A stretch of 44,952 bases of DNA, from the NCBI GenBank assembly GCA_004297845.1, contig SCSP01000278.1, forward strand, positions 1 to 44,952, given 5' to 3'. This DNA is from Bacteroidota bacterium. GTDB lineage: Bacteria; Bacteroidota; Bacteroidia; Palsa-948. Below are positions 1,633 through 39,425 of the stretch, piece after piece (the stretch's first letter is position 1; each line of letters starts with the position of its first letter). The position numbers were made by a program, and so were the translations under genes. Below the pieces are notes generated by a model. It saw only the letters and a program-made list of their open reading frames with translations. It was not told the origin of the DNA and searched no databases.

Positions 1633-2436
1633 ATGAAAACTACTTTTATAATCATAGGGTGTATATTGTTTTTCTTTCCTCTCTTTTGGAGAGGGGCAGG
1701 GGCTGAGGTCTCTGCTCAGGCTAACTCCAGCGGCATTATCCCTTCTGTAAGCCAAAATGAAGATGTCCAGCTTTTATATAGGAATGAACAGGAATTTGGC
1801 GCACTGGCTCACTCCTCCGGATGGGGATTAAATTACCGCAAATGCAAACACATAACGGGATACAGAAAACGGATACTGGAAGTTGAAATGGCAGGTATGC
1901 GGCATCCTAAAGAAATTAAACTTCAGGTGCCTGATATTGGCACGAAAGGATATTTCTATGGGAAGCAATTTGTTGTTACTGTTTTACGCGGAGGGTATGG
2001 TTATCATAAGGTTATTACCGGAAAAAGCGACAGAAGGGGAGTGGAATTACGTCTGTTAACCGTTGCAGGACCCTCTATTGCATTGGCTAAACCGGTATAT
2101 CTTAATATCTGGCATCAGGATCCTGTGAACCCCCCATTTGGTAATATCACTATTGAAAAATATGATCCGACTAATCTGCTTCATACACCTAATTACATCA
2201 TTGGCAGGGCAGGCTATTTCAGGGGTTTTGAACAGATGAATTTTTACCCGGGCGCGTTTTTTAAACTTGGACTCAGCTTTGAACACTCTACTTTAGATGA
2301 CGACATCAAACTTCTTGAAACCGGAATTGTGATAGATGCCTTTTATAAAACGATCCCCATTATGGCCACTGCCCGTAATAACCAGGTGTTTGTGAATGTG
2401 TATCTGAATGTTATGTTCGGAAAAAAATGGTTTTAG
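1633..2436 (+). CDS. Hypothetical secreted or outer-membrane protein
   Basis: The track ORF is 1546-2436. The likely start is the internal Met at 1633 (MKTTFIIIGCILFFF...), which gives a signal-peptide-like N-terminus. No family recognised. Confidence 0.6.
   Translation: MKTTFIIIGCILFFFPLFWRGAGAEVSAQANSSGIIPSVSQNEDVQLLYRNEQEFGALAHSSGWGLNYRKCKHITGYRKRILEVEMAGMRHPKEIKLQVPDIGTKGYFYGKQFVVTVLRGGYGYHKVITGKSDRRGVELRLLTVAGPSIALAKPVYLNIWHQDPVNPPFGNITIEKYDPTNLLHTPNYIIGRAGYFRGFEQMNFYPGAFFKLGLSFEHSTLDDDIKLLETGIVIDAFYKTIPIMATARNNQVFVNVYLNVMFGKKWF
1678..1710 (+). repeat. GC-rich palindromic element copy (CCTCTC-TTTTG-GAGAGG + GGGGCTGAGGT tail)
   Basis: Hairpin plus G-rich tail, the same architecture as the copies at 18317, 31007 and 37215. 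It is translated in-frame as PLFWRGAGAEV. Confidence 0.7.
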
Positions 2437-11200: not shown

Positions 11201-11375
11201 TATTCTGGGGCAGGAAGTGATCCAGTTGGTTGCTGCAGATCAGCCTCAAAATGCAGGTGCGCATGAACTGAAAGTAAATTCTGCGGATTATGAACTCTCA
11301 GGTGGTATTTATTTTCTTAAATTCACAACCGAAGGTTTTTCCAAGATGATCAGGTTGGTGAAAACCGGTAATTAA
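8229..11375 (+). CDS. CotH kinase-family protein, paralog 2 (same domain order, T9SS CTD)
   Basis: Collinear with 4978-8154 over its full length. It carries the same LTD, NGQYWGVYEMRERQDENY and KWRYVLWDTDLG motifs and a C-terminal VYPNPFTD...GIYFLKF...RLVK. Confidence 0.88.
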   Translation: MNFIRLSLIGFLLSDVCQLLYSQVVINELSSANDAVVADEDGDYEDWIELYNPTNVTISLNKYSFLYEVPNEAPVSWTFPKIFIKPRQHLLIFASKKNRKEAIDHWEVPIFADSTWRYKVNTASGPAANWYQPTYSDISWLQGKGGFGYADGDDQTNTGAAYSVFLRKNFSVTDTSKYSLGVLMIDYDDAFVAFLNGVEVARSNIGAFGDHPVYNVSAYDEHEAKLYQGGSQEFFFVQLKNSLKPGNNVFSIQAHNYSGGMDDLTVMPWLILGSKDTAQQFISFPAEFRMHTNFSLSSTEGFKLTLKDSLGAIKDSLTLGPKNMQANNSKGRNPDGSVSWCLFWGPSPADTNDVTQCFGTYSAKPAFNLPAGFYTGVQTLSITVPAGTAVFYTRNGNNPMWTDSMYTGSIIIDSTQVIRARAFALSGTDLPSSTITNSYFINENSTLPVISLCTDSVNLWDWNTGIYVMGPNADTVNLPNQNANFWMPWKKQAHTEFFTKNKLLGFEQDCATEIHGNFSRAWPQKSFRIMANDDYQDPYINYKLFPEKNITKFKSFNIRNAGIDWNTCHFRDRLMHDIVQKKTDIDIMDGEACLLFLNGQYWGVYEMRERQDENYIAGNHNVSPDSIDLLRFEGDILEGSNAAFYGMVGFLANNNMAIQANYDSAQKLIDIENYSDYFITETYYNNWDWFWTDLANNTQGTNNIKFWRGTNPVTKWRYVLWDTDLGMALMDGAAVNCPQNLFGTITDPVITSPSLHIVMLKAMLQNTSFKNYFVNRYCDLMNTVFHPDSVLAKVNNVRTELQPEMARQFARWNGGPITIFGAWDVGRSIDIPTWLNEIDTLEEFVNCRPYNVRDSLQAEFALTKQVDVTLDVSPAGAGKIHLNTIDPVPYPWTGIYMDGVPITMTAIPNTGYVFSHWQAPILIPTPVSTASVSLNVTVNETFTAYFTPIPPGVDPLEASLGLGVYPNPFTDDFSVTYTLHQDEKISVRLFDILGQEVIQLVAADQPQNAGAHELKVNSADYELSGGIYFLKFTTEGFSKMIRLVKTGN

Positions 11376-11431: not shown

Positions 11432-13087
11432 ATGAAGGTTCTTTCCGCAATTATTCTTTCTGTTGTGATTCCGGGCGTTGTGTCTGCTCAATGGAACCCG
11501 AGTTCTTCCGTCAACACATCCGTTTGCGTTCAACCGTATGACCAGCAGGATGCACGTATTGTAACCGACAGTAAAGGTGGGGCGATAATCACCTGGCTCG
11601 ATTTCAGAAATGATGCTGCACAGATCCTGGGCGATGTATTTGTACAGCGGATCGACAAGAACGGTATTAATAAGTGGACAGTAAACGGTGTTGCTGCCTG
11701 TGCAGATGCAACCAATCAAACGGCTCCTTCTGTGGTGGAGGATGGAACCGGTGGGGCTATCATTGCCTGGAACGACTGGAGAAACGGCACCCGCGATATT
11801 TATGCTCAGAAAATTGATTCAACAGGAACGGTAAAATGGGCGGTAAACGGAGTGGCCGTTGTTGCAAAGGCAAGCCATCAGCAGGATGCTAAACTTATTT
11901 CTGACGGAGCAGGGGGTGCTATCGTGGTGTGGCAGGATTCTGCCAACGGACTTTGGGATATTTATGCGCAGCGTATCAGTAGTACTGGTTCTTTGAACTG
12001 GACTGCTGCCGGAGTTCCCATTTGCAGTGCGGCCGATGCCCAGATAAATCCCCGCATTGAAACGGATGGAGCAGGAGGTGCTGTGATCGTATGGCAGGAC
12101 AAACGCGGTGGAATTGATTATGATATTTATGCCCAGCATGTGGACGCAACCGGGGCTACCACCTGGACAGCGAACGGAGTGGCGGTCTGCACAAGTATCA
12201 GCACTCAGTCAAATCCTAAAATTGAGCCGGACGGTGCCGGAGGGATGATCATTGCCTGGCAGGATAAAAGGAACGGAGTGGATTATAATGTTTATACACA
12301 ACGTCTGAGTGCTGCCGGTATTGTGCTATGGTCACCCAACGGGGTGGCGGTTTGCACAGCGGCTGCTTCTCAAAGTGCGGTAGACATGACCTCGGAAGGA
12401 ATTGCGGGTGCCATCATTGTGTGGAAAGACCTTCGAAGCGGCAACTATGATATTTATGCCCAGCGGGTAGATCTTACCGGAAATCTGCAATGGGCTGTGA
12501 ACGGGGTGGCCATTTCTACCGGCCCTGGGGCTCAGTTGAATCCAAATGCCGTGGGTGACGGTGCGGGGGGTGCTATTATTGTCTGGCAGGATTCCAGTGC
12601 GGGTTCTTCAGATATTAAAAGTCAGCGTTTAAGCAGTTTGGGAGTAGTACAATGGACGGTCGGAGGGGTTGGCGTAGGTACAGCAGCCGATAATCAGACC
12701 AGTCCTAAGAATGTTTCGGACGGATCAGGGGGGAGTATCTATGCATGGCAGGATAAAAGGAATGCCGCTGATTTTGATATCTATGCCCATCATCTTTATT
12801 CAAACGGATCGACCAGTGGGATCTTTGAGCATAATAATTATATCAGAAGTTCTGTGTTTCCAAATCCATTTAGTGAGTCGGCCGAAATACAGGTATCAGG
12901 TATAGAGTATCAGGCAAAGGGCATCCGTTTGTTTGATGTTTTGGGACAAGAGATCAGCCCGGATGTTACCAAAAACGACAAAGGATTCTTGATCAAGAGA
13001 AACAATCTTTCAATCGGCATTTATTTTTACGAGATCAAAACTTCAGAAAATATCTTTTCAACCGGAAAGTTCATTATTACGGATTAA
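11432..13087 (+). CDS. Secreted repeat protein (about eight ~54-aa repeats, propeller-like) with T9SS CTD
   Basis: Signal peptide, then repeated units GGAI[IV]xWxDxRxGxxDIYAQRxxxxGxxxWxxNGVxVC, then VFPNPFSE...GIYFYEI...GKFIITD. Confidence 0.8.
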   Translation: MKVLSAIILSVVIPGVVSAQWNPSSSVNTSVCVQPYDQQDARIVTDSKGGAIITWLDFRNDAAQILGDVFVQRIDKNGINKWTVNGVAACADATNQTAPSVVEDGTGGAIIAWNDWRNGTRDIYAQKIDSTGTVKWAVNGVAVVAKASHQQDAKLISDGAGGAIVVWQDSANGLWDIYAQRISSTGSLNWTAAGVPICSAADAQINPRIETDGAGGAVIVWQDKRGGIDYDIYAQHVDATGATTWTANGVAVCTSISTQSNPKIEPDGAGGMIIAWQDKRNGVDYNVYTQRLSAAGIVLWSPNGVAVCTAAASQSAVDMTSEGIAGAIIVWKDLRSGNYDIYAQRVDLTGNLQWAVNGVAISTGPGAQLNPNAVGDGAGGAIIVWQDSSAGSSDIKSQRLSSLGVVQWTVGGVGVGTAADNQTSPKNVSDGSGGSIYAWQDKRNAADFDIYAHHLYSNGSTSGIFEHNNYIRSSVFPNPFSESAEIQVSGIEYQAKGIRLFDVLGQEISPDVTKNDKGFLIKRNNLSIGIYFYEIKTSENIFSTGKFIITD

Positions 13088-17776: not shown

Positions 17777-18766
17777 ATGAAAATACTTTTTCTCGATTCT
17801 GCACACCCTTCCCTGAGAAAAGAACTGGAGAAGAATAATTTCATTTGCGAAGAGGATTTCATTTCTTCCAAAGAGGACATTAAAAAAAATCTTGCCAACT
17901 ATGATGGAATTATACTCCGAAGCCGTATTAATATAGATAAGCCCTTCATCGATTGTTTTCTTCTTTCAAGGCCGGGGCGGATGCCATTCATCGCCCGCGT
18001 TGGTGCCGGCATGGAGCATATTGATGTTGCTTATGCGGAAAGCAAAGGAATAAAATGCCTTTCTTCTCCTGAAGGAAACCGCAATGCTGTTGCCGAGCAT
18101 GCACTCGGTATGTTATTGAACCTCTTGAATAATATTTCCAAAGCCAATGCTGAAGTGAAAGCGGGGAAATGGCTGCGTGAACCCAACCGCGGAACTGAGT
18201 TGGAAGGAAAGACCATCGCTATTTATGGTTATGGGAATACGGGCTCTGCTTTTGCGAACGTGCTGAGAGGATTTGACGTTAATATCCTCGCATATGATAA
18301 GTACCGGGCTGTCTTGCCTCCCTTGGGAGGGGGTGTAGGGGGAGGACTTCAGGAATCCACTCCCGAAGAAATCTTTGTCCAAACCGACATCCTCAGCCTG
18401 CACCTGCCTTTGACCGAGGAAACAAAATACCTCGTTAACGATTCCTTCCTCAGTAAATTCAAAAAGAACATTTACCTCATCAACACCTCCCGCGGTCCGA
18501 TTGTAAAAACCGATGACCTGGTTAAAAACCTCCAGAGCGGAAAAGTGCTGGGCGCGTGTCTGGATGTTATCGAATATGAAGAAACATCCTTTGAGGCTGT
18601 TAAACCCGGAACATTAAACCTTGAACCCGGAACTCAAAATGATTGGGTTTTTTTATCGGATAGTAAAAATGTTATTTTGACTCCGCACATTGCCGGATGG
18701 AGCTTTGAAAGCAGCAAAAAGATGGGGAGGATATTGGCGGAGAAAATAATTGCTTTGAAAAAATAG
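17777..18766 (+). CDS. D-isomer-specific 2-hydroxyacid dehydrogenase (PGDH-like)
   Basis: The track ORF 17435-18766 overlaps mgtE. The realistic start is MKILFLDSA at 17777. NAD fold GKTIAIYGYGNTGSAF, catalytic-region TPHIAGWS. Confidence 0.85.
   Translation: MKILFLDSAHPSLRKELEKNNFICEEDFISSKEDIKKNLANYDGIILRSRINIDKPFIDCFLLSRPGRMPFIARVGAGMEHIDVAYAESKGIKCLSSPEGNRNAVAEHALGMLLNLLNNISKANAEVKAGKWLREPNRGTELEGKTIAIYGYGNTGSAFANVLRGFDVNILAYDKYRAVLPPLGGGVGGGLQESTPEEIFVQTDILSLHLPLTEETKYLVNDSFLSKFKKNIYLINTSRGPIVKTDDLVKNLQSGKVLGACLDVIEYEETSFEAVKPGTLNLEPGTQNDWVFLSDSKNVILTPHIAGWSFESSKKMGRILAEKIIALKK
18317..18345 (+). repeat. GC-rich palindromic element copy inside the dehydrogenase CDS
   Basis: CCTCCC-TTG-GGAGGG hairpin plus a GGTGTAGGGGGAGG tail, read in-frame as PPLGGGVGGG. 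Confidence 0.7.
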
Positions 18767-19487: not shown

Positions 19488-19545
19488 TCGCCTTCAAATA
19501 GCAGTGCAATTGCCAGGAATAATTAGATCTCTAAAAATGAGCTAA

Positions 19546-20824
19546 GTATCTGTAACGAAATAAGGTTTACAAAATTGGCTTTATTGTATAGTTCCATTCT
19601 CCATGAAATTCACTTTTTATAATATTAATTTTTCTTAGTTTTTCATCTGAGACCTTTACTCCTTTCTCGTACACTCCTTTATCCAATTTTGATTTTACTT
19701 TTAATCCTTTACTTGTTTTAGTTGCTGCAATTAAATCCACTACCAATTGAATATTGGTTAAGGGTTTCGCCCTCCAATTCATTGTAATGTGTGAAAATAA
19801 TCGATGCTCTATTTTATTCCATTTGCTTGTACCCGGTGGAAAATGACTTACTGTTATTTCTTTACCTATTTCATCTGCTAATACCTGTAACTCTATTTTC
19901 CACAATCTACTCCTCGAACTGTTACTTCCTCCGCCATCCGCTGTAATAAATAGTCGTTTCGATTCGCTGAATTTTTCTTTCCCCATTTCTTCCCACCAAT
20001 TTCTTATTGTTGATACCGCAAAACTGGCTGTATCATGGCTGATGCCAACACTTACCCAGCCTTCATTATTAGCCACATCATAAACACCGTAAGGAATTGC
20101 TTTGCCTAGATTTTTATCTATAAAGTCGTACACCTTTACCGTTGTTGGCTTTCCTTTTGAATGCCATTCTTTGCCCGCGTTCTTGAAGTTTCCAATCAAT
20201 TCTTTTTTCTTGCAATCAACCGATATTACAGGGTCGCTATTACCTAAAAAACCTTTTGCTAATTCATTAATGTAATTAAATTGTGTGTCTCTATCAATGT
20301 GCTTGCCGCCTTCATGTGTTTTCCGATTCCCTTGTAAGCTATAGCCACTATTTTTTAAAATAACACCTGCTAATTTGTGACTTATGTTGTATCCCATATT
20401 TTTGGCCGCATCAGCTATATTGCGCAAACTTTTATTTGTCCAAAGCAACGGCTTCATTGGGTCGCCCATTGTATGTGGACTAACTATTTCTTCTATTACT
20501 TTTTCTAAATTGGTATTTTTTTCCGTTTCTTTCTTTCGTCCGCCCCCTTCTTTTCTTATCCGTTCATTGGTTGTATCTTTTTTTACAGGAACTGAAGCCA
20601 ACTCTCTAATCCCAATATTTAAAGTCACCCTTGAAACTCCCGAGAGTTTCGACACTTTACTTAGTCCACCCCTTCCCATACTTTCTGCATCTGCAGCCAA
20701 TACTATTCTGGTTTGTCTCTCATTTAAATGGGGAAGTATTTTTTTATACTTCTTTCGGATAAGGATATCTGTTTGCATACATTTTGTGTTTTCACAAATG
20801 TACATATTATTTCGTTACAGATAC
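19546..20824 (-). mobile_element. Intact IS element, ISAzo13 family
   Basis: Perfect 18-bp terminal inverted repeats GTATCTGTAACGAAATAA at 19546-19563 and 20807-20824. TAA flanks both ends (19543-19545 and 20825-20827). A single transposase ORF fills the element. Confidence 0.85.
19567..20805 (-). CDS. ISAzo13-family DDE transposase
   Basis: 412 aa with PVISVDCKKKELIGNFKNAGKEW, PYGVYDVANNEGWVSVGISHDTASFAV, ITADGGGSNSSRSRLWK, HFPPGTSKWNKIEHRLFSHI and FHGEWNYTIKP. Confidence 0.9.
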   Translation of the reverse strand: MYICENTKCMQTDILIRKKYKKILPHLNERQTRIVLAADAESMGRGGLSKVSKLSGVSRVTLNIGIRELASVPVKKDTTNERIRKEGGGRKKETEKNTNLEKVIEEIVSPHTMGDPMKPLLWTNKSLRNIADAAKNMGYNISHKLAGVILKNSGYSLQGNRKTHEGGKHIDRDTQFNYINELAKGFLGNSDPVISVDCKKKELIGNFKNAGKEWHSKGKPTTVKVYDFIDKNLGKAIPYGVYDVANNEGWVSVGISHDTASFAVSTIRNWWEEMGKEKFSESKRLFITADGGGSNSSRSRLWKIELQVLADEIGKEITVSHFPPGTSKWNKIEHRLFSHITMNWRAKPLTNIQLVVDLIAATKTSKGLKVKSKLDKGVYEKGVKVSDEKLRKINIIKSEFHGEWNYTIKPIL

Positions 20825-21177
20825 TAAGATTCAATTTTTCCTGATTTTAAACAAAGCGTGGACTGCCACTCGTGTGACAACAGCCCGCTCCGTGAGACCA
20901 ACACGCTGGTAGCCGGACATATCCCCGACCCTACAACCAACGGGCCCGACAGTCTCCCTTTAACCACTTTGTCACGGTTTTTGAGATCACACACTGCTTG
21001 CACATTGCCGTGCTCGTGTCTGCGCGCGGCAAAGATCAAGCGTGAGGCTCCATCAAAAAACCGCGCCCAAAAATCACCATGCTATCCGTTCTTAGCTATA
21101 TAATCCGTAATCATTTGTTTTCAACAATTAAAATTTTTGAAGGGATATTGTATAAATTAGCCCAAAATTCAATAATA

Positions 21178-22869
21178 ATGATAAAAGAACCTGTAAAAAA
21201 GAAAAAGAGGTACAAGGTTGCCTCAAAACCTTCGGTTGTAAAAGAATGTGAAGAAAACTATTTCTTAACCCCACCGAAGCATTTAAAAAGAGAAGAAACA
21301 TTCCTATCCATTAAGGAGGCCAGTGAATTTGCCAGTAATTATCTAAAAAGAAATGTTACCACCTCAAATATTTCCTATCTCATTCAATATGGCAGAGTAA
21401 AAAAAATTGGCGACAATGGCTCTACACTCATTGATAAAAATGAATTACTCGAATATTATCAATCTTATAATGGCACAAGAGCGGTAGAATGGAAAGAAAA
21501 ATTAGGGAAGGATTTAAATTGGACTTTATCCTTTGACGAATATAAAGAAGCCGAAACTACCAAACATGTTCACCGACTCCACCCATATAAAGGAAAATTT
21601 ATTCCGCAACTAGTTGAATACTTTTTAGATGCCAAGACCGATAAATTCAAAAAGGAAGTTTATTTCAAAGAAGGTGAAATAGTTCTTGACCCATTTTGCG
21701 GAAGCGGAACAACTCTTGTTCAGGCAAGTGAATTAGGGATGCACGCAATCGGCATAGATGTTTCCACGTTCAATGCAATGATCAGCAATGTTAAGATTGG
21801 GAAATATGACATTGAAGACATAAAAAAGGAAGCCGACAAAATCTCATCCGCGCTCAATCAGTTTATTACCAATTCCAAAACAGTTGCATTTGAAACCCGA
21901 CTGCTTGAAGAGTTAAATAAATTCAATAATAAATATTTTCCTGTTCCTGAATATAAATACCAGTTAAAACAAGGTAAAATAAACGAAGATAAATTCGGAG
22001 CGGAAAAAGAAAAAGAATTCCTTCCAACATTTGACAAATTAGTTAAAGAATATAAAATTGAATTAAGGCAAAAGAAGTCTGATACATTTCTTGATAAATG
22101 GTATTTACAACATGTGCGAACAGAAATTGACTTTGTATACGATCTGATACGAAAAATAAAAAATGAAAACACGAAAAAGATTTTAAGCGTTGTACTCAGC
22201 CGAACAATCCGCTCCTGCCGTGCAACTACTCATGCAGATTTAGCAACCCTTTTCGAACCAATAACTTCCACATATTATTGCCAAAAACATGGCAAAATGT
22301 GCAAGCCATTATTTTCCATTCTTAAATGGTGGGACAGTTACAGCAAAGACACTCAGAAAAGATTAAAAGAATATAACGTATTGCGAAAAGAAACCCAGCA
22401 GGTTTGCCTTACAGGTGATTCGCGCTCGATAGACATTTTCAATGCATTGAAAGAGCAAAATCCTTCTTTCGCCCGGCTTGCAAAAGGATTAAAGATTAAA
22501 GGAATTTTTTCATCGCCACCCTATGTAGGCGTAATCGATTACCATGAACAACATGCTTACGCGTATGATTTGTTTGCCTTTGAAAGAAAAGATAGTCTTG
22601 AAATTGGTCCGCTTATTAAAGGTCAGGGGCGGGAAGCAAAAGAATCATACACAAAAGGAATTTCAGATGTATTAAACAATTGCAAAAAATTCTTTGTTCA
22701 AGATTACGATGTTTTTCTTGTCGCAAACGACAAATACAATATGTATCCAACCATTGCCGAACTTGCCGGCATGAAAATTGTTAATCAATATAAACGACCT
22801 GTATTAAACCGCACGGAGAAAGATAAAGGAGCCTATTCAGAAATCATTTTTCATTTGAAAGGGAAATAA
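21178..22869 (+). CDS. Type II DNA amino-methyltransferase (motif I upstream of SPPY)
   Basis: AdoMet motif LDPFCGSGTTLVQA and catalytic motif IFSSPPYVG about 280 aa downstream. The likely start is MIKEP at 21178; the track ORF begins at 21079. Confidence 0.82.
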   Translation: MIKEPVKKKKRYKVASKPSVVKECEENYFLTPPKHLKREETFLSIKEASEFASNYLKRNVTTSNISYLIQYGRVKKIGDNGSTLIDKNELLEYYQSYNGTRAVEWKEKLGKDLNWTLSFDEYKEAETTKHVHRLHPYKGKFIPQLVEYFLDAKTDKFKKEVYFKEGEIVLDPFCGSGTTLVQASELGMHAIGIDVSTFNAMISNVKIGKYDIEDIKKEADKISSALNQFITNSKTVAFETRLLEELNKFNNKYFPVPEYKYQLKQGKINEDKFGAEKEKEFLPTFDKLVKEYKIELRQKKSDTFLDKWYLQHVRTEIDFVYDLIRKIKNENTKKILSVVLSRTIRSCRATTHADLATLFEPITSTYYCQKHGKMCKPLFSILKWWDSYSKDTQKRLKEYNVLRKETQQVCLTGDSRSIDIFNALKEQNPSFARLAKGLKIKGIFSSPPYVGVIDYHEQHAYAYDLFAFERKDSLEIGPLIKGQGREAKESYTKGISDVLNNCKKFFVQDYDVFLVANDKYNMYPTIAELAGMKIVNQYKRPVLNRTEKDKGAYSEIIFHLKGK

Positions 22870-29717: not shown

Positions 29718-31394
29718 CTAATGTTTAAAATGCCGAACGCCTGTAAATACCATAGACATCTTATTCTTGTCGCAGTAATCAATGGAATCCTTGTCTTTTA
29801 CCGAGCCTCCCGGCTGAACAACGGCCGTGATACCTTCGTTATGGGCTATTTCCACGCAATCGGGGAAAGGGAAAAAGGCGTCTGATGCCATTACTGCGTC
29901 TCTCAGGTCAAAACCGAAGTTTTTTGCTTTGAGAATAGCCTGCTTCAGTGCGTCCACCCGGGATGTTTGCCCAATTCCGCTGGCGAGTAGTTGCCCGTTC
30001 TTTGCCAGGACGATTGTATTCGACTTGCTATGCTTTACAATCTTATTCGCAAATACCAGGTCATTCAATTTCTCCTTGGACGGAATTGCTTTAGTGACTG
30101 GTTTCATATCATCTGCAGATTCGGTTTTAAAGTCCCGGTCCTGTTCCAGGTAGCCATTCAGGGCGGTGCGGATGAGTTTTGCAGAAAGTTCAGCAGATTT
30201 TTGCCGGAGGATTATGCGGTTTTTTTTTTGTTTTAGCAAAGTAAGAGCCGTTTTGTCATACGAAGGGGCGATGATCACTTCGAAAAAAAGTTTGTTTATT
30301 TCTTTTGCTGTAACTTCATCCACGTTTGCATTGGTTATCAGGATACCGCCAAATGCAGAAACCGGGTCACCGGCAAGGGCATTTTTCCAAACATCTGTGA
30401 GATTTTTCCCGGATGCAATCCCGCAGGCATTATTGTGCTTTAAAATGGCGAAGGTGATAGCCCCTTTTAATTCCCCCGAATGGAGAAAAATAGCATCTGC
30501 TGAACCCTCCCTTTGGTGGGTGGGTGGGCTGAATTCCGCCATGAGGTTTACCGCAGCATCAATATCCAGGAGATTATTGTAAGAAAGTTCTTTTCCGTTT
30601 AGCTGTGCGAACATCTTTTCAAAGTCACCGTAGAACGTCCCTTTCTGGTGCGGATTTTCACCGTAGCGGAGCGACTTTGTCCCGATAGCTATCGGGATTA
30701 CGGCAGAACCGCTCATCGCCTCACTCCCATCCCCTCTCCTCGGGGAGAGGGGGTCAACAGCCCCGGAAAAATAGGTGTGTATAGCCGTGTCATAGTTTGA
30801 CGAAACTCCAAATGCTTTTGTTGCCAGAAATTTTCTATCTTCAAGAGTAGAAACACCTTTTTTATCCTTTAGAATTTTTAAAAGATACGAGTATTCATTT
30901 TTGGAAGGAACAATAACCACGTCATTAAAATTTTTTGCTGCGGCACGAATGAGGGAAATTCCGCCAATGTCAATCTTCTCGATAATTTCGGTCTCGGCTG
31001 TTAGACCCCCTTCTCCCCCAGGAGAAGGGTTAGGGGATGAGGTGTGTTTTGAAACGGTCTCTTCAAACGGATACAGATCAACGATCACCAGATCTATCTG
31101 CGGAATTTTATATTCTTCCAACTGCGCCACATCGCTTTGCAGTTCTCTGCGGCTCAAAATGCCTCCGAAAATTTTAGGATGCAGTGTTTTTACTCTTCCT
31201 CCCAAAATGGAAGGGTAGGAAGTAAGCTCTTCCACCGGGGTAACTTTCACCCCTGATTTTTCTATAAACTCTTGAGTTCCTCCGGTGCTGAAAACGGTTA
31301 CGCCAAGCTCGCCTAATTTTTTTACGATGGGTTCAAGATGGTCTTTGTAAAAAACGGAAATGAGAGCGCTTTTAATTTTCTTATCTCCGGTCAT
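29718..31394 (-). CDS. purH: Bifunctional AICAR transformylase / IMP cyclohydrolase
   Basis: VFSTGGTQEFI, KTLHPKIFGGIL, IDIGGISLIRAAAKN, RYGENPHQ, ILKHNNACG and VVQPGGSVKD. The ORF is lengthened by several in-frame repeat insertions. Confidence 0.95.
   Translation of the reverse strand: MTGDKKIKSALISVFYKDHLEPIVKKLGELGVTVFSTGGTQEFIEKSGVKVTPVEELTSYPSILGGRVKTLHPKIFGGILSRRELQSDVAQLEEYKIPQIDLVIVDLYPFEETVSKHTSSPNPSPGGEGGLTAETEIIEKIDIGGISLIRAAAKNFNDVVIVPSKNEYSYLLKILKDKKGVSTLEDRKFLATKAFGVSSNYDTAIHTYFSGAVDPLSPRRGDGSEAMSGSAVIPIAIGTKSLRYGENPHQKGTFYGDFEKMFAQLNGKELSYNNLLDIDAAVNLMAEFSPPTHQREGSADAIFLHSGELKGAITFAILKHNNACGIASGKNLTDVWKNALAGDPVSAFGGILITNANVDEVTAKEINKLFFEVIIAPSYDKTALTLLKQKKNRIILRQKSAELSAKLIRTALNGYLEQDRDFKTESADDMKPVTKAIPSKEKLNDLVFANKIVKHSKSNTIVLAKNGQLLASGIGQTSRVDALKQAILKAKNFGFDLRDAVMASDAFFPFPDCVEIAHNEGITAVVQPGGSVKDKDSIDYCDKNKMSMVFTGVRHFKH
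30680..30697. repeat. Family B palindrome TCCCGATAGCTATCGGGA inside purH
   Basis: Identical to the 18-mer at 2452-2469. It is translated as part of AVIPIAIGTKS in the inter-domain linker. Confidence 0.85.
30719..30755 (-). repeat. GC-rich palindromic element copy inside purH
   Basis: CCTCACTCCCAT-CCCCTCTCC-TCGG-GGAGAGGGG, read as DPLSPRRGDGSEA. Confidence 0.8.
31007..31045 (+). repeat. GC-rich palindromic element copy inside purH (opposite orientation)
   Basis: CCCTTCTCC-CCCA-GGAGAAGGG-TTAGGGGATGAGGTG, read on the other strand as SSPNPSPGGEGG. Confidence 0.8.
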
Positions 31395-33229: not shown

Positions 33230-33704
33230 TCATACACTTATCCCAATAATCATTACCGGAATATCAATATCGGCTGTTCCTCTTTTTTCTAAATCCCAAA
33301 CAAATTGTTCAAAATAAGAAACGCCCGTTGACATTTGTTCAGCTAACTCTTTGAAAGGAACAATCTCGATTCCAGCAATGATATGTCCAAGGTTTTTAAA
33401 AATAGTCATCTTAGCGCAGACATTATACACCATAAAAGAATACTTGCCAAATTGAACTTCGACACCTAATTTATTTTTTACAAAATCCATATCTCTATAT
33501 GGATAAACTTTCTTTTTGTAAGGATTATTGTAACCATTGACGTAATGATTGGTATTATAATCGCATGGTTCTTTAATATTTTTCCAGCCAAGCGGAGAAA
33601 GTTTCTTTTTCAATATTCTGTAAATTCTTGAGTGCATCTCCATGCAGTATCTCATGTTGAGCATCAGTATGGAAAAACTCTTCTATGCTTGTTTGATTTT
33701 TCAT
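33230..33704 (-). pseudogene. BglII/BstYI-like type II restriction endonuclease, frameshifted, orphan
   Basis: DMDFVKNKLGVEVQFGKY matches the BglII catalytic D-x8-E-x-Q block (DIDFGKRDILVEVQF). A plausible N-terminus (MKNQTSIEEFFHTDAQHEILHGDALKNLQNIEKE, 33573-33704) is in a different frame. The junction lies at an A5 run (plus-strand T5 at 33606-33610). Confidence 0.55.
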
Positions 33705-33743: not shown

Positions 33744-36700
33744 TCATTTCTTTATCGTTGCAAGAATACTCACCGCAGTGTCAATATCTTTTATGTTCTC
33801 AATTTTGAGTGTCAGTTTACTTTCGCCCTCATTCATGGAGCAGGTTTTTGGATTGCTTTGTACAAACTGTAAAATCTGCGAGAATTTTTTGCTTTGGTAG
33901 TAAGGCGATTTTTGGTTAGAGACAAACCAAGCGGTGATTTTTTTATTTTTCAAAATAAGTTTTTCAAAACCAAGTTCAACGGCCAGCCATCGAAGGCGAA
34001 CTACACTAATCAGTTTTTTCACCTGATTGGGAACAAGTCCAAATCGGTCTTGTAAATGTTTTTCGAAAGCGACAAGTTGATCCTCTGTTTTGCTGTTGTC
34101 TAATTGCCGGTATAGTGCAATTCGTTCCGAAATGCTTTCAACATATTCTTCCGGAATCAATACTTCCAGATCGGTATCTATTGTGCAATCGCGAACGAAG
34201 TTTCTGTCCTCTAAGTTCCGGCTTCCGGCTGTTTCATTGCCTACTGCCAACTGCCTGCCGTCTACTTCTTCACGCAATTCCTGCATCGCTTCATCCAGAA
34301 TTTTCTGATACATCTCGTAGCCAATATCCGTAATGAACCCGCTTTGCTCTGCTCCCAGCAGATTCCCCGCTCCGCGTATATCGAGATCGCGCATGGCAAT
34401 GTTGAATCCGCTGCCGAGGTCTGAAAATTCTTCTATGGCACGAAGGCGTTTTTTTGCTTCGTTGGTGAGGGATGCGAAAGGGGGAGTGAGCAGGTAGCAA
34501 AATGCTTTTTTATTGGAACGGCCCACGCGTCCGCGCAATTGGTACAGGTCGCTTAGCCCGTAGTTCTGTGCATCGTTGACAATTATTGTATTCGCATTTG
34601 CAATATCCAATCCGGATTCAATGATGGTGGTACAGACAAGCACATCGTAATCTCCCTCTATAAAATTAAGCATGGCTTTTTCAAGCGCTTCACCTGTCAG
34701 TTGCCCGTGGGCGACAAGCACTCTTGCCTTTGGGCATAACTTCTGAATGAGTTCGGCATATCGCCCAATATTCTGTACGCGGTTGTGTACGAAGAATACT
34801 TGCCCGCCCCGTTGAAGTTCGTATTCGATGCCCTCTTTGATCGTTTTTTCGTTGAACTGACCCACTTCTGTGTGAATGGGATATCGGTTAGGAGGCGGGG
34901 TGTTGATCACGGAAAGATCCCGTGCCCCCATCATGGAGAACTGAAGCGTTCGCGGAATGGGCGTTGCGGTGAGTGTAAGTGTGTCCACATTCTCTTTCAG
35001 TGTTTTCAACTTGTCTTTTGCGCCAACACCGAATTTTTGCTCTTCATCCACAACCAACAAACCAAGGTCTTTGAATTTTATGTCTTTTCCCAGAAGGCGG
35101 TGAGTACCGATAAGTATATCAACTTTTCCTGCTTCTAATTTTTTCAATGTTTCCTTTTGATCCTTCAAAGATTTAAACCGATTTATGTAATCCACCGTGA
35201 CGGGAAATCCTTTCATCCGCTCTGCAAAAGTCTTGTAGTGTTGAAGAGCGAGAATGGTGGTGGGTACGAGCACTGCAGTTTGTTTTCCATCCAATACTGC
35301 CTTGAATGCCGCACGAATGGCAATTTCTGTTTTTCCGAAGCCAACATCTCCGCAGATCAGCCTGTCCATGGGGAATTCCTGTTCCATGTCGCGCTTCACA
35401 TCTGCAGTTGATTTCACCTGGTCCGGGGTGTCTTCGTATAGGAAGGAAGATTCTATTTCATTCTGCAGATAATTATCAGGAGAAAAGGCAAACCCTTTCT
35501 GCGCTTTCCGTTTCGCATAAAGTTTGATCAGATCGAAGGCAATCTCCTTCACCTTTTTTTTTGTTTTTCGTTTCAGGTTCGTCCATGCGTTGGAGCCGAG
35601 CTTGTCCAAACGGGGTGCTTCACCCTCTTTCCCGGAATGTTTGGCAATCTGGTGAAGTGAGTGAATGCTTATGTGAAGTGTGTCGTTGTCTTTGTAAACC
35701 AATCGAATTGCTTCCTGCCACCTCACCCCCGACCCCTCTCCTGCAGGAGAGGGGAGCACTATCTTCTCCATGCCACCAAAACGACCAATCCCGTAATCAA
35801 TGTGGGTGACATAATCTCCTGGCTGAAGGGACTTCAGCATTTTAATGGTAAGCGCCTCGTTCTTTTTAAAATTGCTGTTCTTGAGTTTATATCGGTGATA
35901 GCGCCCAAATATCTGGTGATCGGTGTAGCAGGAAATTTTGTTGTCGTTGTCAATGAAACCTTCGTGTATTCCTCCCTGATCCTCTCCGAACGGAAACCGC
36001 ATAGCTATTTCCACCGTTGCTGGGAAAAGGCTTTCGTAAATTGCCCGAAGCCGTTCCATTTGCTTCGGATTGTCAAAAAGAATAAGATTGCTGTATCCGT
36101 TTGAGTTTTGTTTGTTCAGGTTCTCAAACAACAGGTCAAAATTTTTGTTGAAGGAAGGTTGGGGGGAGAAGTTGAAACCGACCTCACCCATAATCTCTCT
36201 TCTTGAGGAGTGGGGAGAAGAACTAAATTCGATGCAGGGAACATTTGAAAATTCACTTTTCAGTTCCTCGCTGGAAATGAAAAGTGTGGATGCGTCTTTT
36301 TCGAGTACTGATTTCAGCCCTTCGTCAATAGTGCTGAGAATATGGTTTTCGTTGTCGAGCCAGACGAAAAGGTTACTTTTGCTTTCCAGTATGTAGTCCA
36401 GAATAGAGGTTGATTTTCCCTCTGCTAATTTCTCCTGAATATTCGGAAGGATACTTGCTTTGTCAAAATTCTGAAGTGAGAGCTGGTTGGCGGTATCAAA
36501 TGTTCGGATGGACTCCACTTCATCTCCTGCAAGTTCGATGCGGAAGGGGGCATCATTGGCGAAAGAAAATATGTCCACAATCCCTCCGCGAACAGAATAT
36601 TGTCCCGGCTCTATCACGTAATCACACCGTTCAAACCCATACTCATTTAAAAGGTCGGTTAAAAATTGCAGGGAGATTTTTTCTCCTTTATTAATATCAA

Positions 36701-37172
36701 TCGAATTTTTTTCAAGAAACTCTTTTGAAATAACTTTTTCTGCAATGGCCTCAGGATAGGAAATGATGGTAAGTGATCCCTGTCGGATGGCATTTAATAC
36801 TTCGGCTCTAAGTTGAATGGAGGGTGTGCCCAGTTCCTCGGTAGTGAAGGGACGCTTGAAGGAAGAAGGGAAAAACCTCACCCCCGACCCCTCTCCCGCA
36901 GGAGAGGGGAGTGAAACAGCCAGGGTTTCCAGATCATTCAGAACATAGGCTGCCTGTTCTTTGTCCTGTAGAATAACCAAGTGGATACCCGGCCGGTGCT
37001 CCGAAACTGCACGGATTATGAAAGAAGCGGAAGAACCGGAAAACCCCTTTGCGGAAACCGACTTCTTTTCTCTTAGACATTCCGAAATGGACAACACCCT
37101 TTCATCTCCGAAATAAATTTTCAGAAGCGATGAAAGATCAATAGCAGAATTTTCTGCTTGCCCCATATACAT
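33744..37172 (-). CDS. mfd: Transcription-repair coupling factor
   Basis: 1142 aa. UvrB-homology N-terminus, GDVGFGKTE (Walker A), DEEQKFG, the TATPIPRT helicase core and a TRG/C-terminal domain. It holds two in-frame repeat insertions. Confidence 0.95.
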   Translation of the reverse strand: MYMGQAENSAIDLSSLLKIYFGDERVLSISECLREKKSVSAKGFSGSSASFIIRAVSEHRPGIHLVILQDKEQAAYVLNDLETLAVSLPSPAGEGSGVRFFPSSFKRPFTTEELGTPSIQLRAEVLNAIRQGSLTIISYPEAIAEKVISKEFLEKNSIDINKGEKISLQFLTDLLNEYGFERCDYVIEPGQYSVRGGIVDIFSFANDAPFRIELAGDEVESIRTFDTANQLSLQNFDKASILPNIQEKLAEGKSTSILDYILESKSNLFVWLDNENHILSTIDEGLKSVLEKDASTLFISSEELKSEFSNVPCIEFSSSPHSSRREIMGEVGFNFSPQPSFNKNFDLLFENLNKQNSNGYSNLILFDNPKQMERLRAIYESLFPATVEIAMRFPFGEDQGGIHEGFIDNDNKISCYTDHQIFGRYHRYKLKNSNFKKNEALTIKMLKSLQPGDYVTHIDYGIGRFGGMEKIVLPSPAGEGSGVRWQEAIRLVYKDNDTLHISIHSLHQIAKHSGKEGEAPRLDKLGSNAWTNLKRKTKKKVKEIAFDLIKLYAKRKAQKGFAFSPDNYLQNEIESSFLYEDTPDQVKSTADVKRDMEQEFPMDRLICGDVGFGKTEIAIRAAFKAVLDGKQTAVLVPTTILALQHYKTFAERMKGFPVTVDYINRFKSLKDQKETLKKLEAGKVDILIGTHRLLGKDIKFKDLGLLVVDEEQKFGVGAKDKLKTLKENVDTLTLTATPIPRTLQFSMMGARDLSVINTPPPNRYPIHTEVGQFNEKTIKEGIEYELQRGGQVFFVHNRVQNIGRYAELIQKLCPKARVLVAHGQLTGEALEKAMLNFIEGDYDVLVCTTIIESGLDIANANTIIVNDAQNYGLSDLYQLRGRVGRSNKKAFCYLLTPPFASLTNEAKKRLRAIEEFSDLGSGFNIAMRDLDIRGAGNLLGAEQSGFITDIGYEMYQKILDEAMQELREEVDGRQLAVGNETAGSRNLEDRNFVRDCTIDTDLEVLIPEEYVESISERIALYRQLDNSKTEDQLVAFEKHLQDRFGLVPNQVKKLISVVRLRWLAVELGFEKLILKNKKITAWFVSNQKSPYYQSKKFSQILQFVQSNPKTCSMNEGESKLTLKIENIKDIDTAVSILATIKK
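35719..35755 (-). repeat. GC-rich palindromic element copy inside mfd (copy 1)
   Basis: CACCTCACCCCCGA-CCCCTCTCC-TGCA-GGAGAGGGG, read as LPSPAGEGSGVRW. Confidence 0.85.
36876..36910 (-). repeat. GC-rich palindromic element copy inside mfd (copy 2)
   Basis: CCTCACCCCCGA-CCCCTCTCC-CGCA-GGAGAGGGG. It differs from copy 1 by one loop base and is read as LPSPAGEGSGVRF. Confidence 0.85.
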
Positions 37173-37214: not shown

Positions 37215-37252
37215 CCTCCTCTCCTTTGGGGAGGGGGTTAGGGGGAGGGGTG
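37215..37252 (+). repeat. GC-rich palindromic element copy, intergenic (between TPR gene stop and mfd start)
   Basis: CCTCCTCTCC-TTTGG-GGAGGGGG-TTAGGGGGAGGGGTG. It ends 2 nt before the stop codon at 37254-37256. Confidence 0.8.
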
Positions 37253-37253
37253 T

Positions 37254-39425
37254 TTATTGTCCCGTCAATTCCCTAACCTTATCCCTATACTCTTCCGATT
37301 TATCTTTATCGCCCATCAGCTCGTAGGTTACCGCTAAGTTTCCCAATGCCTGTGTATTAGTGGGATACAATGCAACAACTTTGTTCAGCACTTCAATATT
37401 TTTAGGATAGTTTTTGAGCATTCCGTAGCAATTTGCCAGGTTTACGAGTGCATCTACAAAAGTTGGATTTAATTGTGTAGATTTATCCAGACAACGAGCC
37501 GCATTTACATAATCGCCTTTCGATGCGTAGTCGGTTCCGAGTTTGTAGTAGAACTGAAAATCGCGGGTATTCTCCGGTGTTGAATTCTCTACCGAATCAA
37601 GATTAGTGGAAGTAGGAAAAATCCGCACATCCAATCCTGTCTTTTTCTGGTGATTGTCCCGGTTTTTTTTACCATCCGGGAAATACGGATTCACATCTAC
37701 CGCTTTGTTATAATAATAAGATGCCACTTCATTTTTTCCGAGACCTTCATATAGAATCCCCATGTTGTTATAGCTGATCGCATAACCGGGCGCTTCCTGA
37801 ATGGCACGGGTATAATAATAGATAGCTGAATCATTATTTATCCGCACGGTTTGATACGCAACGCCTAATTTGAAATAGGCATCACCGAATCGTGGATTTA
37901 TTCTCAATGCCTCCTTGATCTGCCCGGTCCCTTTATCAAACCATTCGTTTTTTTCTTTCTGGTCCTTTGCTGAAATTCCCATGTTGATGAGCTCGCTTCC
38001 GTAATGCCTGCGTACCTGGCAGGAGTTGGGGGATGCATTTACATCGGTGGAGAAAAGCGTCATGTTATCGTGCCAAATAGGGTTGCGGGTAACTGTCTTG
38101 AAAGAATACAGAATGAAAATGACCAATAAGAGGCCCGGTCCCAAACCCTCCCGAAGGGAGGGGAGTTTGTACGACTTTTGCATCCAATAATTTTGGATTG
38201 TCGCCCAACCCGAGCTTCGCTCCCAACCTACGGTTGTCCTTTGGGGAGATACGAGAGAGGCTAAACACACAATGACTATGCTGAATCCCAGGGAGGGAGC
38301 GTATAAGAATCGTTCCGCAAAAATGCCTCCGCGAAGAAATACAAAGGCCATCGCGGGGGCCAGCGTGGCGCAGAAGAGCAGGACACCCAACGATACAGGA
38401 TTTTTTTTAAGCAGGCCTTTGAAACTGAAATATGCGAGGGTTATAGTAAGCAGGAATCCGAACAGCACACCGGCCGAGGCAAAGGTTACAGCGGGTATCT
38501 GGTTGTAGGAGTAATCATAAGTCAGCGGGTGAGGAAATAGTATCATCCGGATAGAATGCATAAAGATATAGAATGTGGTAGGGAGTTTGGTGCCTGCTTC
38601 GGCATAGGGGTAGTTTACAATGTCTTTTGGGATTTGCGCTTCAAGTGATCCAAGTACACCCAATTTGTGCATTTGAAAAATAAGTATCATTAGCGCAAAT
38701 GGAATTGCCCTGAGCAAACTTTGTTTGAAATTCAAATTGGATCTGAAAAATATTGCCAGAGGGGCGATGAGCAGTCCGGTCATGGCCGATTCTTTGGAAA
38801 GCAGGGCGAGATAAAAGAAAATAGAGGAGAGGATCAGAAGTTTGAAATTTATTTTTGTATCCTTGTAAGCTGCGAGCAAGATGTATATTCCAACGATAAG
38901 ATTGAGAAAGGATAGTATCTCATCCCGGCTTTTGATATTTGCCACTACTTCCGTGTGAATGGGGTGTGCAATAAACAGCAGCGTAATTGCAAAGGAAAAT
39001 ACGGGATGATAATTCCGGAAAAGATTCATCAAAAGCATGCAGAGGAAAAATCCGGTGAGGGCGTACAGAATCACATTTCCCAAATGGCTCACATGAGGGT
39101 TGCCCGGAAAGAATTCATTTTCAATGGCGAACGTAATCATGGAGAGGGGGCGGTAATACCCCAGGTTCACATTATCAAAATGCCACATACCAACGCTCAG
39201 GATCTTTGGAATACCGCTGATACCTTCTGTTACATATTCATTCCCGGTGATTGCGCCCACATCGTCCAGCACATATTCATGCTTAACGGTGTCCAGATAA
39301 AGACAGAAACCAACTACTGTGCATATCACCGCGAACCATATATTTGGTTCAAAGGTTGGTAATACAGCTTGTTTGGGCTTTGCCTGTTTTTGTGGAGCGC
39401 TTTTTATAGGTTTCTTGGGAGCCAT
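37254..39425 (-). CDS. Polytopic membrane protein with C-terminal TPR repeats (TMTC / PMT-like glycosyltransferase architecture)
   Basis: About 10 TM helices at the N-terminus, followed by multiple TPR units (AYFKLGVAYQ, AISYNNMGILYEGLG, VDALVNLANCYG, ALGNLAVTYE). Confidence 0.75.
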   Translation of the reverse strand: MAPKKPIKSAPQKQAKPKQAVLPTFEPNIWFAVICTVVGFCLYLDTVKHEYVLDDVGAITGNEYVTEGISGIPKILSVGMWHFDNVNLGYYRPLSMITFAIENEFFPGNPHVSHLGNVILYALTGFFLCMLLMNLFRNYHPVFSFAITLLFIAHPIHTEVVANIKSRDEILSFLNLIVGIYILLAAYKDTKINFKLLILSSIFFYLALLSKESAMTGLLIAPLAIFFRSNLNFKQSLLRAIPFALMILIFQMHKLGVLGSLEAQIPKDIVNYPYAEAGTKLPTTFYIFMHSIRMILFPHPLTYDYSYNQIPAVTFASAGVLFGFLLTITLAYFSFKGLLKKNPVSLGVLLFCATLAPAMAFVFLRGGIFAERFLYAPSLGFSIVIVCLASLVSPQRTTVGWERSSGWATIQNYWMQKSYKLPSLREGLGPGLLLVIFILYSFKTVTRNPIWHDNMTLFSTDVNASPNSCQVRRHYGSELINMGISAKDQKEKNEWFDKGTGQIKEALRINPRFGDAYFKLGVAYQTVRINNDSAIYYYTRAIQEAPGYAISYNNMGILYEGLGKNEVASYYYNKAVDVNPYFPDGKKNRDNHQKKTGLDVRIFPTSTNLDSVENSTPENTRDFQFYYKLGTDYASKGDYVNAARCLDKSTQLNPTFVDALVNLANCYGMLKNYPKNIEVLNKVVALYPTNTQALGNLAVTYELMGDKDKSEEYRDKVRELTGQ
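38133..38165 (-). repeat. Degenerate GC-rich palindromic element inside the TPR membrane protein gene
   Basis: CCCTCCC-GAA-GGGAGGG hairpin with a GGTCCCAAA flank, read as LPSLREGLGPG. Confidence 0.6.

Follow-up and report, generated by a model that had tools for sequence, protein, structure and literature searches.

The BoxC repeat of Escherichia coli is said to have been described by Bachellier et al. in the 1990s and to have been taken up by Hoyne and Maher in 2000 and 2002 as the potential intrastrand triplex (PIT) element. BoxC, re-described as PIT (Hoyne and Maher), was later studied as TMECO (Holder et al. 2015, PMC4666352), a repeat with the pattern CCCTCNCCC-N3-6-GGGNGAGGG-N3-GGGNGAGGG that was counted in 3610 copies in 262 proteobacterial genomes, with G/C-rich motifs also abundant in cyanobacteria (PMC4666352). 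The 23 TMECO copies of E. coli K-12 are "always located intergenically", the second loop is of the TTA or CCG type, and inverted pairs are frequent (PMC4666352). Neither promoter nor terminator activity was reported for TMECO, nor an effect on RNA polymerase (RNAP) or an association with a gene class; PIT elements block DNA polymerase in vitro, and sequence variability is locally raised around TMECO copies, which links them to instability (PMC4666352). Here we analysed a 44,952-nt stretch of a Bacteroidota metagenome-assembled genome (GCA_004297845.1, contig SCSP01000278.1, positions 1 to 44,952), hereafter the window, in which near-identical palindromic repeats lie in-frame within mfd, the gene of the transcription-repair coupling factor.

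Rickettsia palindromic elements (RPEs), reportedly described by Ogata et al. in 2000 and by Claverie and Ogata in 2003, are ~100-150 bp long, form the families RPE-1 to RPE-8 and are known only from Rickettsia. Repetitive extragenic palindromic (REP) sequences and the REP-associated tyrosine transposases (RAYTs) were reportedly treated by Nunvar in 2010, and miniature inverted-repeat transposable elements (MITEs) have terminal inverted repeats matching a parent insertion sequence (IS) together with target-site duplications. Comparators for in-frame MITEs are those of Coxiella (PMC5896051) and the Cod-2 repeat family (PMC2267715).

Results

Repeat units in mfd

The mfd open reading frame (ORF; 33744..37172, minus strand) has 1142 codons, the annotated protein P0001 beginning 2 codons later, and encodes the Pfam domains UvrB_inter, CarD_TRCF_RID, DEAD, Helicase_C and TRCF. 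It contains two intact repeat copies on the minus strand, one at 36875..36911 (site 1, residues 88-100, LPSPAGEGSGVRF) and the other at 35720..35756 (site 3, residues 473-485, LPSPAGEGSGVRW), where the segment replaces the VNG turn of the RNAP-interacting domain. The two copies were identical at 36/37 positions and differed by a single loop base; in gene sense both read CTCCCCTCTCC-TGC[A/G]-GGAGAGGGG-TCG-GGGGTGAGG-T, and the in-frame Mfd reading of both is LPSPAGEGSGVR[W/F]. The hairpin pattern occurred 4 times in the window against 0.00 expected and the hairpin-plus-tail pattern 5 times against 0.00 expected, while a relaxed motif gave 0 matches in 200 shuffles of the window, in agreement with the initial annotation, which had reported two near-identical in-frame copies. 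That annotation overlooked a third, decayed copy at 36181..36217 (minus strand; site 2, residues 319-331, SPHSSRREIMGEV), which is read in sense frame 3; L120, P0004, P0005, P0008 and P0016 have the orthologous copy in intact form (SPLSLGRGVGGEV), P numbers standing for compared proteins and L numbers for compared loci. The host gene, which had been called essential and well conserved, is conserved, but mfd is not generally essential.

Each unit covers ~36 nt and consists of four parts, namely a pyrimidine arm (CCCCTCTCC), a 4-nt loop, a complementary purine arm (GGAGAGGGG), and a 3-nt spacer with a second purine arm (GGGGTGAGG). Folded as single-stranded DNA, the intact copies formed a 9-bp stem with a 4-nt loop at about -10 kcal/mol (ViennaRNA, hairpin only modelled). 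The stem and loop given earlier thus stood, but the GGGGTGAGG "tail" is a mirror-repeat third strand and no appendage. The segment CCCCTCTCC-TGCA-GGAGAGGGG has the arm-loop-arm arrangement of BoxC/PIT/TMECO, and TCG-GGGGTGAGG provides the mirror third arm, its reversed form GGAGTGGGG giving 8 G·G or A·A triads and one T·A against GGAGAGGGG. Compared with the published pattern, the 8-nt arm cores were the same and the ninth pair was shifted by one position (outer versus loop side of the stem). The words CCCTCTCC, GGAGAGGG and GGGTGAGG were common to the window unit and Table 1 of PMC4666352, and the spacer types TTA and CCG occurred both in copies here and in the published E. coli repeat. A blastn search found E. 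coli copies with 84-91% identity to the window unit over 33-39 nt in unannotated DNA of 576 genomes. Intergenic location, an observation made for E. coli K-12 and no part of a definition, is not shared, with 8/9 window copies in ORFs. Judged by its sequence, the element is the known G/C-rich BoxC/PIT/TMECO repeat, neither new nor lineage-specific, and the earlier statement that no equivalent had been described does not hold. An Rfam scan of the whole window at gathering thresholds returned no family.

Further copies in the window

The gene purH (29718..31394, minus strand), which encodes AICARFT/IMPCHase, is 558 aa long, compared with 511 and 509 aa in syntenic relatives. A good copy at 30719..30754 (minus strand, residues 214-226, DPLSPRRGDGSEA) is read in sense frame 3; its site is free of the repeat in L205 and holds a divergent, shorter segment in L121 (PGIPDQGRVN), possibly a decayed copy. 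A second good copy at 31007..31041 (plus strand, residues 118-130, TSSPNPSPGGEGG) is read antisense, belongs to a second subtype that pairs GGAGAAGGG with GGGGATGAGG, and is absent from L121 and L205. A third insertion at 30462..30527 (minus strand, residues 290-311), also overlooked before, is probably a decayed and expanded copy; L205 has TPSPSERDGVR in that place and L121 is empty.

The remaining copies were less regular. On the plus strand, a copy at 1678..1708 with a 6-bp stem and a shortened C-arm is read in sense frame 3 (PLFWRGAGAEV) in an unannotated ORF, just behind its hydrophobic N-terminal segment, and a GGGAGG-type variant at 18317..18345 (PPLGGGVGGG) lies within the NAD-binding domain of a D-2-hydroxyacid dehydrogenase ORF. 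An intergenic GGGAGG-type variant with a TTA spacer at 37215..37248 (plus strand) stands between the stop of a TPR membrane-protein gene and the mfd start, and was found in the same place in L120 and L121. Within the TPR gene itself, a weak hairpin with a poor third arm at 38133..38165 (minus strand, residues 421-431, LPSLREGLGPG) has an orthologous copy in L120 and is absent in L121 and L205. The same gene holds a second, disrupted insertion at 38211-38258 (minus strand, SPQRTTVGWERSSGW), where L120 reads PLLSPRRGEGW; this segment is probably another decayed copy with a nested insertion. Recurrence at six further positions had been claimed; 30719 and 31007 are good copies, and the others are shorter, variant or poor in the third arm.

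At least 5 window ORFs were entered (mfd at 3 sites, purH at 3 sites and three others at 1 each). Eight of the nine window copies lie inside ORFs and one is intergenic, and 7/8 genic copies are sense-oriented. The readings found were LPSPxGEGxGVR in sense frame 1, PLSxxRGxGxEV in sense frame 3 and TSSPNPSPGGEGG in antisense, which bears out the earlier report of both orientations and three stop-free frames. The unit is free of stops in 5/6 frames, only sense frame 2 being shut by the TGA of GGTGAGG, so that a copy can persist in coding DNA. The three frames, the two orientations and the intergenic copy together point to a DNA-level element.

Filled and empty sites in orthologues

We aligned Mfd with 40 orthologues (57-84% identity) and took the insertion states from the alignment itself. 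At site 3, all distant and many close sequences read ...KIEVNGKxQEAIR..., the outgroup EVNGK standing at the position of the window VLPSPAGEGSGVRW, whereas P0001, P0002, P0004, P0012, P0016 and P0019 had LPSPxGEGxGVR in place of VNG and P0024 and P0025 retained shortened remnants. Site 1 was filled in P0001, P0002 and P0012, with variant insertions in P0010 and P0016. P0002, P0004, P0005, P0008 and P0016 had SPLSLGRGxGGEV at site 2, a reading of this DNA in a different frame, and decayed versions were seen in the window and in P0019. P0003 (81% identity), the sister to the window and P0002 on a neighbour-joining tree, had none of the three insertions. It is encoded on contig L121, which shares synteny with the window, MreB, MreC, FtsX, PBP2 and RodA being collinear, and the window segments that are extra relative to L121 were the three PurH sites (558 vs 511 aa), Mfd sites 1 and 3, and the TPR protein. 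Because presence was patchy among the 40 orthologues, P0003 was empty and extra segments occurred only at repeat sites, the alignment supports lineage-specific in-frame insertion of repeated palindromic DNA into mfd and purH over ancestral sequence, as had been proposed.

An AlphaFold2 model of Mfd built from 43 sequences (mean predicted local distance difference test score, pLDDT, 69.6; N-terminal half mostly 85-92; numbering = ORF minus 2) predicted that all three insertions lie in coil or beta-hairpin tips with pLDDT dips. Site 1 (model residues 86-98) fell in coil leading from helix 69-84 to strand 96-98, with pLDDT <50 at 87-92. Site 2 (317-329) was predicted as coil with two short strands on either side and pLDDT block means of 67-70, and site 3 (471-483) formed the tip of a beta-hairpin (459-471 / 482-490) in the RNAP-interacting domain, with pLDDT <50 at 477-481. 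In a HMMER alignment to E. coli Mfd (6x26), the site-3 insert begins directly after the residue aligned to L499. The L499R substitution abolished the Mfd-RNAP interaction (PMC3001067), and the site-3 loop beside the aligned residue would therefore be functionally sensitive.

At the site-2 position in P0012 (L122:2650-2700), a different perfect hairpin, GGTCGGGATT-TGAA-ATCCCGACC, occupies the place that the repeat has in other lineages, and site 2 looks like a preferred target of hairpin insertion. An assembly artefact was rejected as a source of the segments, orthologous copies being present in independent Logan, ENA, JGI and NCBI assemblies. Translational bypass or non-translation was rejected on indirect grounds, as every genic window copy leaves the host frame open, which would be needless if the segment were skipped.

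Arm constancy between distant relatives

The near-identity of the two mfd copies had been taken as a sign of recent spread. In L120 (P0002; 84% amino-acid identity), copies were present at the same junctions at mfd sites 1, 2 and 3. The two mfd genes had a nucleotide identity of 0.765, and third-codon identity at identical residues was ~0.51, that is, saturated. The arms nevertheless matched at 26/27 positions at site 1 and 27/27 at site 3 (53/54 in total; binomial P about 3e-6), whereas only 8/14 loop and spacer positions matched. Since orthologous copies with constant arms are present in a relative with saturated third-codon sites, the near-identity is no sign of recent insertion. It indicates, as far as the aligned sequences go, either nucleotide-level constraint on the arms or gene conversion and overwriting by other copies (concerted evolution). 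Spacers tended to be genome-specific, with TCG in both intact window mfd copies and CCG in 4/5 L120 copies. At site 2 of the window 8 arm positions were lost and the fold was gone, and copies that escape maintenance thus appear to decay, as shown by this site. We infer that gene conversion between copies, selection acting on the folded DNA, or a combination of the two keeps the arms constant.

Occurrence across phyla

We scanned one genome per GTDB species for CCCTCTCC-N4-GGAGAGGGG-N3-GGGGTGAGG. The exact 33-nt core was found in at least 119 stretches and at least 153 copies in about ten phyla. The hosts included Bacteroidota (including cultured Prevotella, Hoylesella and Hymenobacter), Chloroflexota, Cyanobacteria, Planctomycetota, Alpha-, Beta- and Gammaproteobacteria, Myxococcota, Fibrobacterota, Ignavibacteriales, Methylomirabilota and two lineages of the Candidate Phyla Radiation. 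The flanks were unrelated between taxa, and the repeat is therefore a discrete unit with sharp ends. Among the 153 copies listed, a greedy ORF-span census placed 42 well inside ORFs (~27%), 19 at an ORF edge and 92 in intergenic DNA; the 42 in-ORF copies comprised 19 sense and 23 antisense, with no orientation bias across phyla. Ten copy-spanning ORFs were translated and six of them named by eye, without a Pfam check: presumably these encode LeuRS (L065), PheT (L082), AlaRS (L073), GatA (L029), FolC (L079) and MetH (L035). One copy lies under cas10d on a Stanieria plasmid (annotated record). By these sequences, in-frame carriage is widespread outside E. coli, and no description of in-frame carriage of the repeat was found in the literature searched.

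In Prevotella veroralis DSM 19559 (L022) and at L084 and L107, the repeat stands within a longer conserved unit with the left flank ...gcaaacagcactattcactc and the right flank ctgtag..., and oral Prevotella carry up to 8 copies of this composite unit in 8 kb; from its sequence it is a lineage-specific composite repeat built on the same core. Copies were also seen on plasmids or chromids, including cyanobacterial ones (L206, Synechocystis sp. B12), Prevotella, Cupriavidus (8 matching places in one record) and others. In phage records, a full-length copy was found only in Virus Rctr41k (2 matching places, the examined one intergenic), and other phage matches were partial, covering 59-65% of the query. 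The copy in this uncultured Caudoviricetes contig (KX853513.1; L207:1504-1536) is 95% identical and lies between tail genes. Phages as the main vector were considered and are not an obvious choice, given the one full-length phage copy and four viral loci of the nuclease family DUF559 that lack repeats. Phage and plasmid copies are nonetheless possible routes for cross-phylum transfer.

These distributions bear on two further readings. In the first, LPSPxGEGxGVR would be a protein motif, either ancestral or acquired adaptively, with the similarity of the DNA as a by-product; the conservation of the peptide among carrier orthologues may be cited for it. This DNA, however, also occurs in other reading frames, in antisense and between genes, the outgroups and P0003, the closest relative, lack the peptide, frozen synonymous positions are confined to the arms, and the same 33 nt recur in unrelated genes and intergenic DNA across phyla. 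This reading is largely refuted, and we give it hardly any credence. In the second, the repeat would be a host-beneficial cis-element under selection, such as a transcription pausing, mRNA stability or recombination/replication signal. Arm conservation at the nucleotide level that reaches synonymous positions, the retention of the intergenic copy upstream of mfd in three lineages, and the sense orientation of 7/8 genic window copies are in its favour; close relatives without copies, however, show no visible compensation, some copies decay, as at mfd site 2, the sense excess disappears across phyla, and earlier work found none of the regulatory activities or gene-class associations sought (PMC4666352). 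We regard a beneficial cis-element as unlikely.

The mfd segments are very probably solo BoxC/PIT/TMECO copies, that is, selfish or neutral repeated DNA rather than a protein motif, and the encoded 12-13-residue peptide would be a passenger in Mfd.

DUF559 genes between inverted copies

Starting from the repeat, a tblastn search found a DUF559 ORF in 8/119 listed loci; in each it lay no more than 250 nt from a repeat, and in most it had repeats on both sides. Four of these 8 were confirmed as PF04480 with Pfam. Starting from DUF559, with a profile made from a 5-sequence subset and seeded from repeat-associated DUF559s, at least 1 repeat lay within 300 nt in 35/80 metagenome loci. Repeat density was 1.83/kb near DUF559 compared with 0.036/kb in the remaining 332 kb of flanks (~50-fold). 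The layout was stereotyped, with CCTCACCCC-N3-CCCCTCTCC-loop-GGAGAGGG on one side of the DUF559 ORF and CCCTCTCC-loop-GGAGAGGGG-N3-GGGGTGAGG on the other, the sides being sometimes doubled. The same bracket surrounds an "endonuclease domain-containing protein" on a Synechocystis plasmid.

In L065 (LeuRS; 2543-3501) and L035 (MetH; 2235-2687), the in-frame insert between the inverted repeats holds a DUF559 domain (PF04480, E about 1e-34). Nine MetH loci (L140, L156, L159, L164, L167, L176, L180, L181 and L194, around position 4001) carried the cassette at one position (...DEIINR | cassette | HExAVHTLN...). Many bracketed cassettes were read through in-frame in long ORFs, whereas DUF559 genes without repeats were short stand-alone ORFs. 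As predicted beforehand, the E. coli K-12 DUF559 gene ycjD ends in a decayed copy (...NRRSPSP*), and the intact TMECO no. 9 lies ~170 nt downstream. In the literature on DUF559 and ycjD, represented mainly by titles and abstract openings, no link to BoxC/PIT was found.

Two observations concern DNA next to such genes. After ycjD (L123:1700-1935), a duplicated copy of its last ~60 nt precedes the intact TMECO, an arrangement whose sequence suggests slippage or gene conversion at the repeat. Downstream of DUF559 in L124 (4304-4500), and also in L125 and L126, ~8-9 tandem 18-nt units ACTCCCTCTCCATTTCAA encode (SPSPFQ)n; each of these units corresponds to pyrimidine arm and loop, and a complete repeat closes the run, a case of half-repeat amplification.

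Neighbouring features

An apparently intact IS at 19542-20828 has 30-nt inverted ends (87% complementary) and a 412-aa ISAzo13-family DDE transposase (PF07592, E 1e-136). It bears on a further explanation, in which the repeat would be a REP- or MITE-type element moved in trans by a RAYT/IS200-like Y1 transposase or by a DDE transposase such as that of this IS. A short, G+C-rich, high-copy hairpin repeat and an intact IS with 30-nt inverted ends in the same window would suit such an element. Against this, GTAG and CGTC tags were not enriched, lying within 12 nt in 30/153 and 19/153 listed copies, compared with a rough 14% chance, and the GTAG cases were mostly Prevotella-specific flanks; the ends of the window IS are unrelated in sequence to the repeat; filled and empty mfd sites showed no target duplication; and the gene between inverted copies is DUF559 and no transposase (the window not having been scanned exhaustively for Y1). 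Mobilisation of this kind is very unlikely.

Directly downstream of mfd, at 33230-33664 (minus strand), a 144-aa ORF matches the restriction endonuclease BglII in its C-terminal part only (PF09195, profile positions 70-162 of 163); it has no counterpart at that place in the syntenic L121. A DNA methylase ORF lies at 21079-22869. A tandem pair of paralogous genes at 4978-8154 and 8229-11375, whose nucleotide identity is 71-77% along extended tracts, codes for CotH-kinase-domain proteins of ~1050 aa that carry C-terminal sorting domains for type IX secretion. Additional ORFs with type IX secretion tails follow, including one at 11432-13087 with a 162-165-nt internal periodicity (7 units).

Discussion

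The repeat family described here is known and its setting is new: copies lie in-frame in conserved genes of Bacteroidota and other phyla, their arms are kept at the nucleotide level, and inverted copies bracket DUF559 genes. The analysis ties an in-frame repeat to a biophysically studied E. coli family hitherto thought to be intergenic and to range over proteobacteria and cyanobacteria, and it finds a 33-nt core common to about ten phyla that is tolerated inside conserved proteins. For annotation, peptides such as LPSPxGEGxGVR, PLSxxRGxGGEV and LTPxPSPxGEG would be better treated as passengers of a DNA repeat than as protein motifs. The repeat may further be regarded as a source of loop insertions and local instability in genes, one of them beside an RNAP-contacting residue of Mfd.

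How the copies reached these sites can be proposed from the DUF559 association. The element would serve as terminal inverted repeat to a tiny cassette with the gene for a DUF559 (Vsr-like PD-(D/E)XK) nuclease, and solo copies would be non-autonomous derivatives or footprints of this cassette, much as a MITE relates to its parent element. A nick or break induced by the DUF559 nuclease would be repaired, and in the course of repair the repeat would be copied to new sites. The absence of stops in 5/6 frames would allow solo repeats and whole cassettes alike to colonise coding sequence, and the surviving genic copies are additions in multiples of three that are predicted to lie in surface loops. 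No DUF559 gene was found in the 45-kb window by tblastn, and the window copies are therefore solo units. We consider spread by way of a DUF559 cassette and repair-mediated copying the likeliest of the mechanisms discussed, though short of probable. The wider proposal, which makes BoxC/PIT/TMECO sequences the terminal inverted repeats, and the solo derivatives, of an ultra-small selfish DUF559 cassette that is pan-bacterial and colonises coding sequence, is put forward as doubtful.

Several observations count against this proposal. Besides the lack of a DUF559 gene in the window, 45/80 of the loci found from DUF559 had no detectable repeat, the four viral DUF559 loci had none, and the profile behind these figures was itself seeded from repeat-associated members. 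Neither a target-site duplication nor a clean empty/filled junction was found at the mfd sites, and at site 3 ~9 nt (VNG) have given way to the element, so that it is no pure addition. Carriers are scattered over the Mfd tree in a way that agrees neither with one gain followed by exact losses nor with simple independent gains: exact losses restoring EVNGK are implausible, and independent gains at one codon would need a target preference. Purine-arm and third-arm variants were perfectly linked (65/65 and 20/20 among 91 motif instances at the loci found from DUF559), which could reflect two subfamilies rather than structural selection. The isolated TMECO strand forms a triplex in vitro and none was detected in vivo, and TMECO showed no link to transposons, phages or plasmids (PMC4666352). 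Mobility of the repeat or the cassette is, finally, a proposal drawn from sequence comparison.

The chief rival dispenses with a dedicated enzyme. The motif would block polymerases and provoke breaks or slippage, template switching or ectopic gene conversion in the course of repair would both copy and homogenise it, and the DUF559 link would be secondary, the gene simply landing in, or being retained beside, repeats. Its tie to local instability and the block to DNA polymerase by PIT in vitro (PMC4666352) agree with this, as do the genome-specific spacers and the half-repeat tandem expansions ((SPSPFQ)n in L124-L126). The site-3 element of mfd shares GTGA..GG with sequence that was there before it, and this overlap together with the 9-nt replacement, which resembles microhomology rather than cut-and-paste, hints in its sequence at microhomology-guided copying. 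Copying without an enzyme, however, leaves unexplained both a 26-nt-plus identical core across about ten phyla and the stereotyped inverted-repeat DUF559 bracket with its ~50-fold enrichment, and we judge it rather improbable. The DUF559 bracket, in turn, offers a first testable candidate for the origin and spread of BoxC/PIT and suggests a function for the uncharacterised ycjD. If the cassette proposal were true, repeats that have been orphans for ~30 years would become the counterpart of RPEs across phyla, with a mobilising enzyme that can be named, and repeats and cassettes would stay translated inside Mfd, PurH, aminoacyl-tRNA synthetases and MetH.

Comparison with known systems

With BoxC/PIT/TMECO, the window repeat shares the three-arm architecture, the core words, the spacer types, the inverted pairs, and decay or deletion between relatives. 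It differs in that 8/9 window copies lie in ORFs and are translated in-frame, whereas those of E. coli K-12 are always intergenic; in its host, a Bacteroidota genome as opposed to the published range of proteobacteria and cyanobacteria; in the 1-nt register variant; and in the DUF559 link, which is absent from PMC4666352.

Likeness to RPEs, as first suggested, applies to the in-frame insertion of palindromic DNA at loops of unrelated conserved genes and fails for unit size and sequence, though no direct comparison with RPE consensus sequences was made. Both are palindromic, are read in several frames within conserved unrelated genes, add surface peptides and leave the host protein undestroyed. 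The window unit is ~36 nt long with sharp ends, and it has a Bacteroidota host and a core shared across phyla. To our knowledge, RPEs have no mirror-repeat third arm and no associated nuclease gene, and we would expect no sequence relationship between them and the window unit.

REP sequences with their mosaic arrangements (BIMEs, bacterial interspersed mosaic elements) and RAYTs resemble the repeat as G+C-rich hairpins of 20-40 nt in high copy number, with inverted pairs and a small repeat-flanked gene (Di Nocera 2013, PMC3733652). REPs are, however, extragenic and bear GTAG or CGTC tags, which are not enriched near the window-type repeat, and their enzyme is a Y1 (IS200-like) transposase, in contrast to the PD-(D/E)XK DUF559 nuclease found here. 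Unlike MITEs, the solo copies have no parent-IS ends and no target duplication, and their candidate parent is a nuclease cassette. Homing endonuclease genes, whether free-standing or intein-associated, likewise place a small nuclease gene in-frame at permissive sites of conserved genes; the DUF559 cassette differs from them in lacking splicing domains, so that the insert apparently stays in the host protein, and in carrying structured inverted repeats, and homing is invoked here only by analogy.

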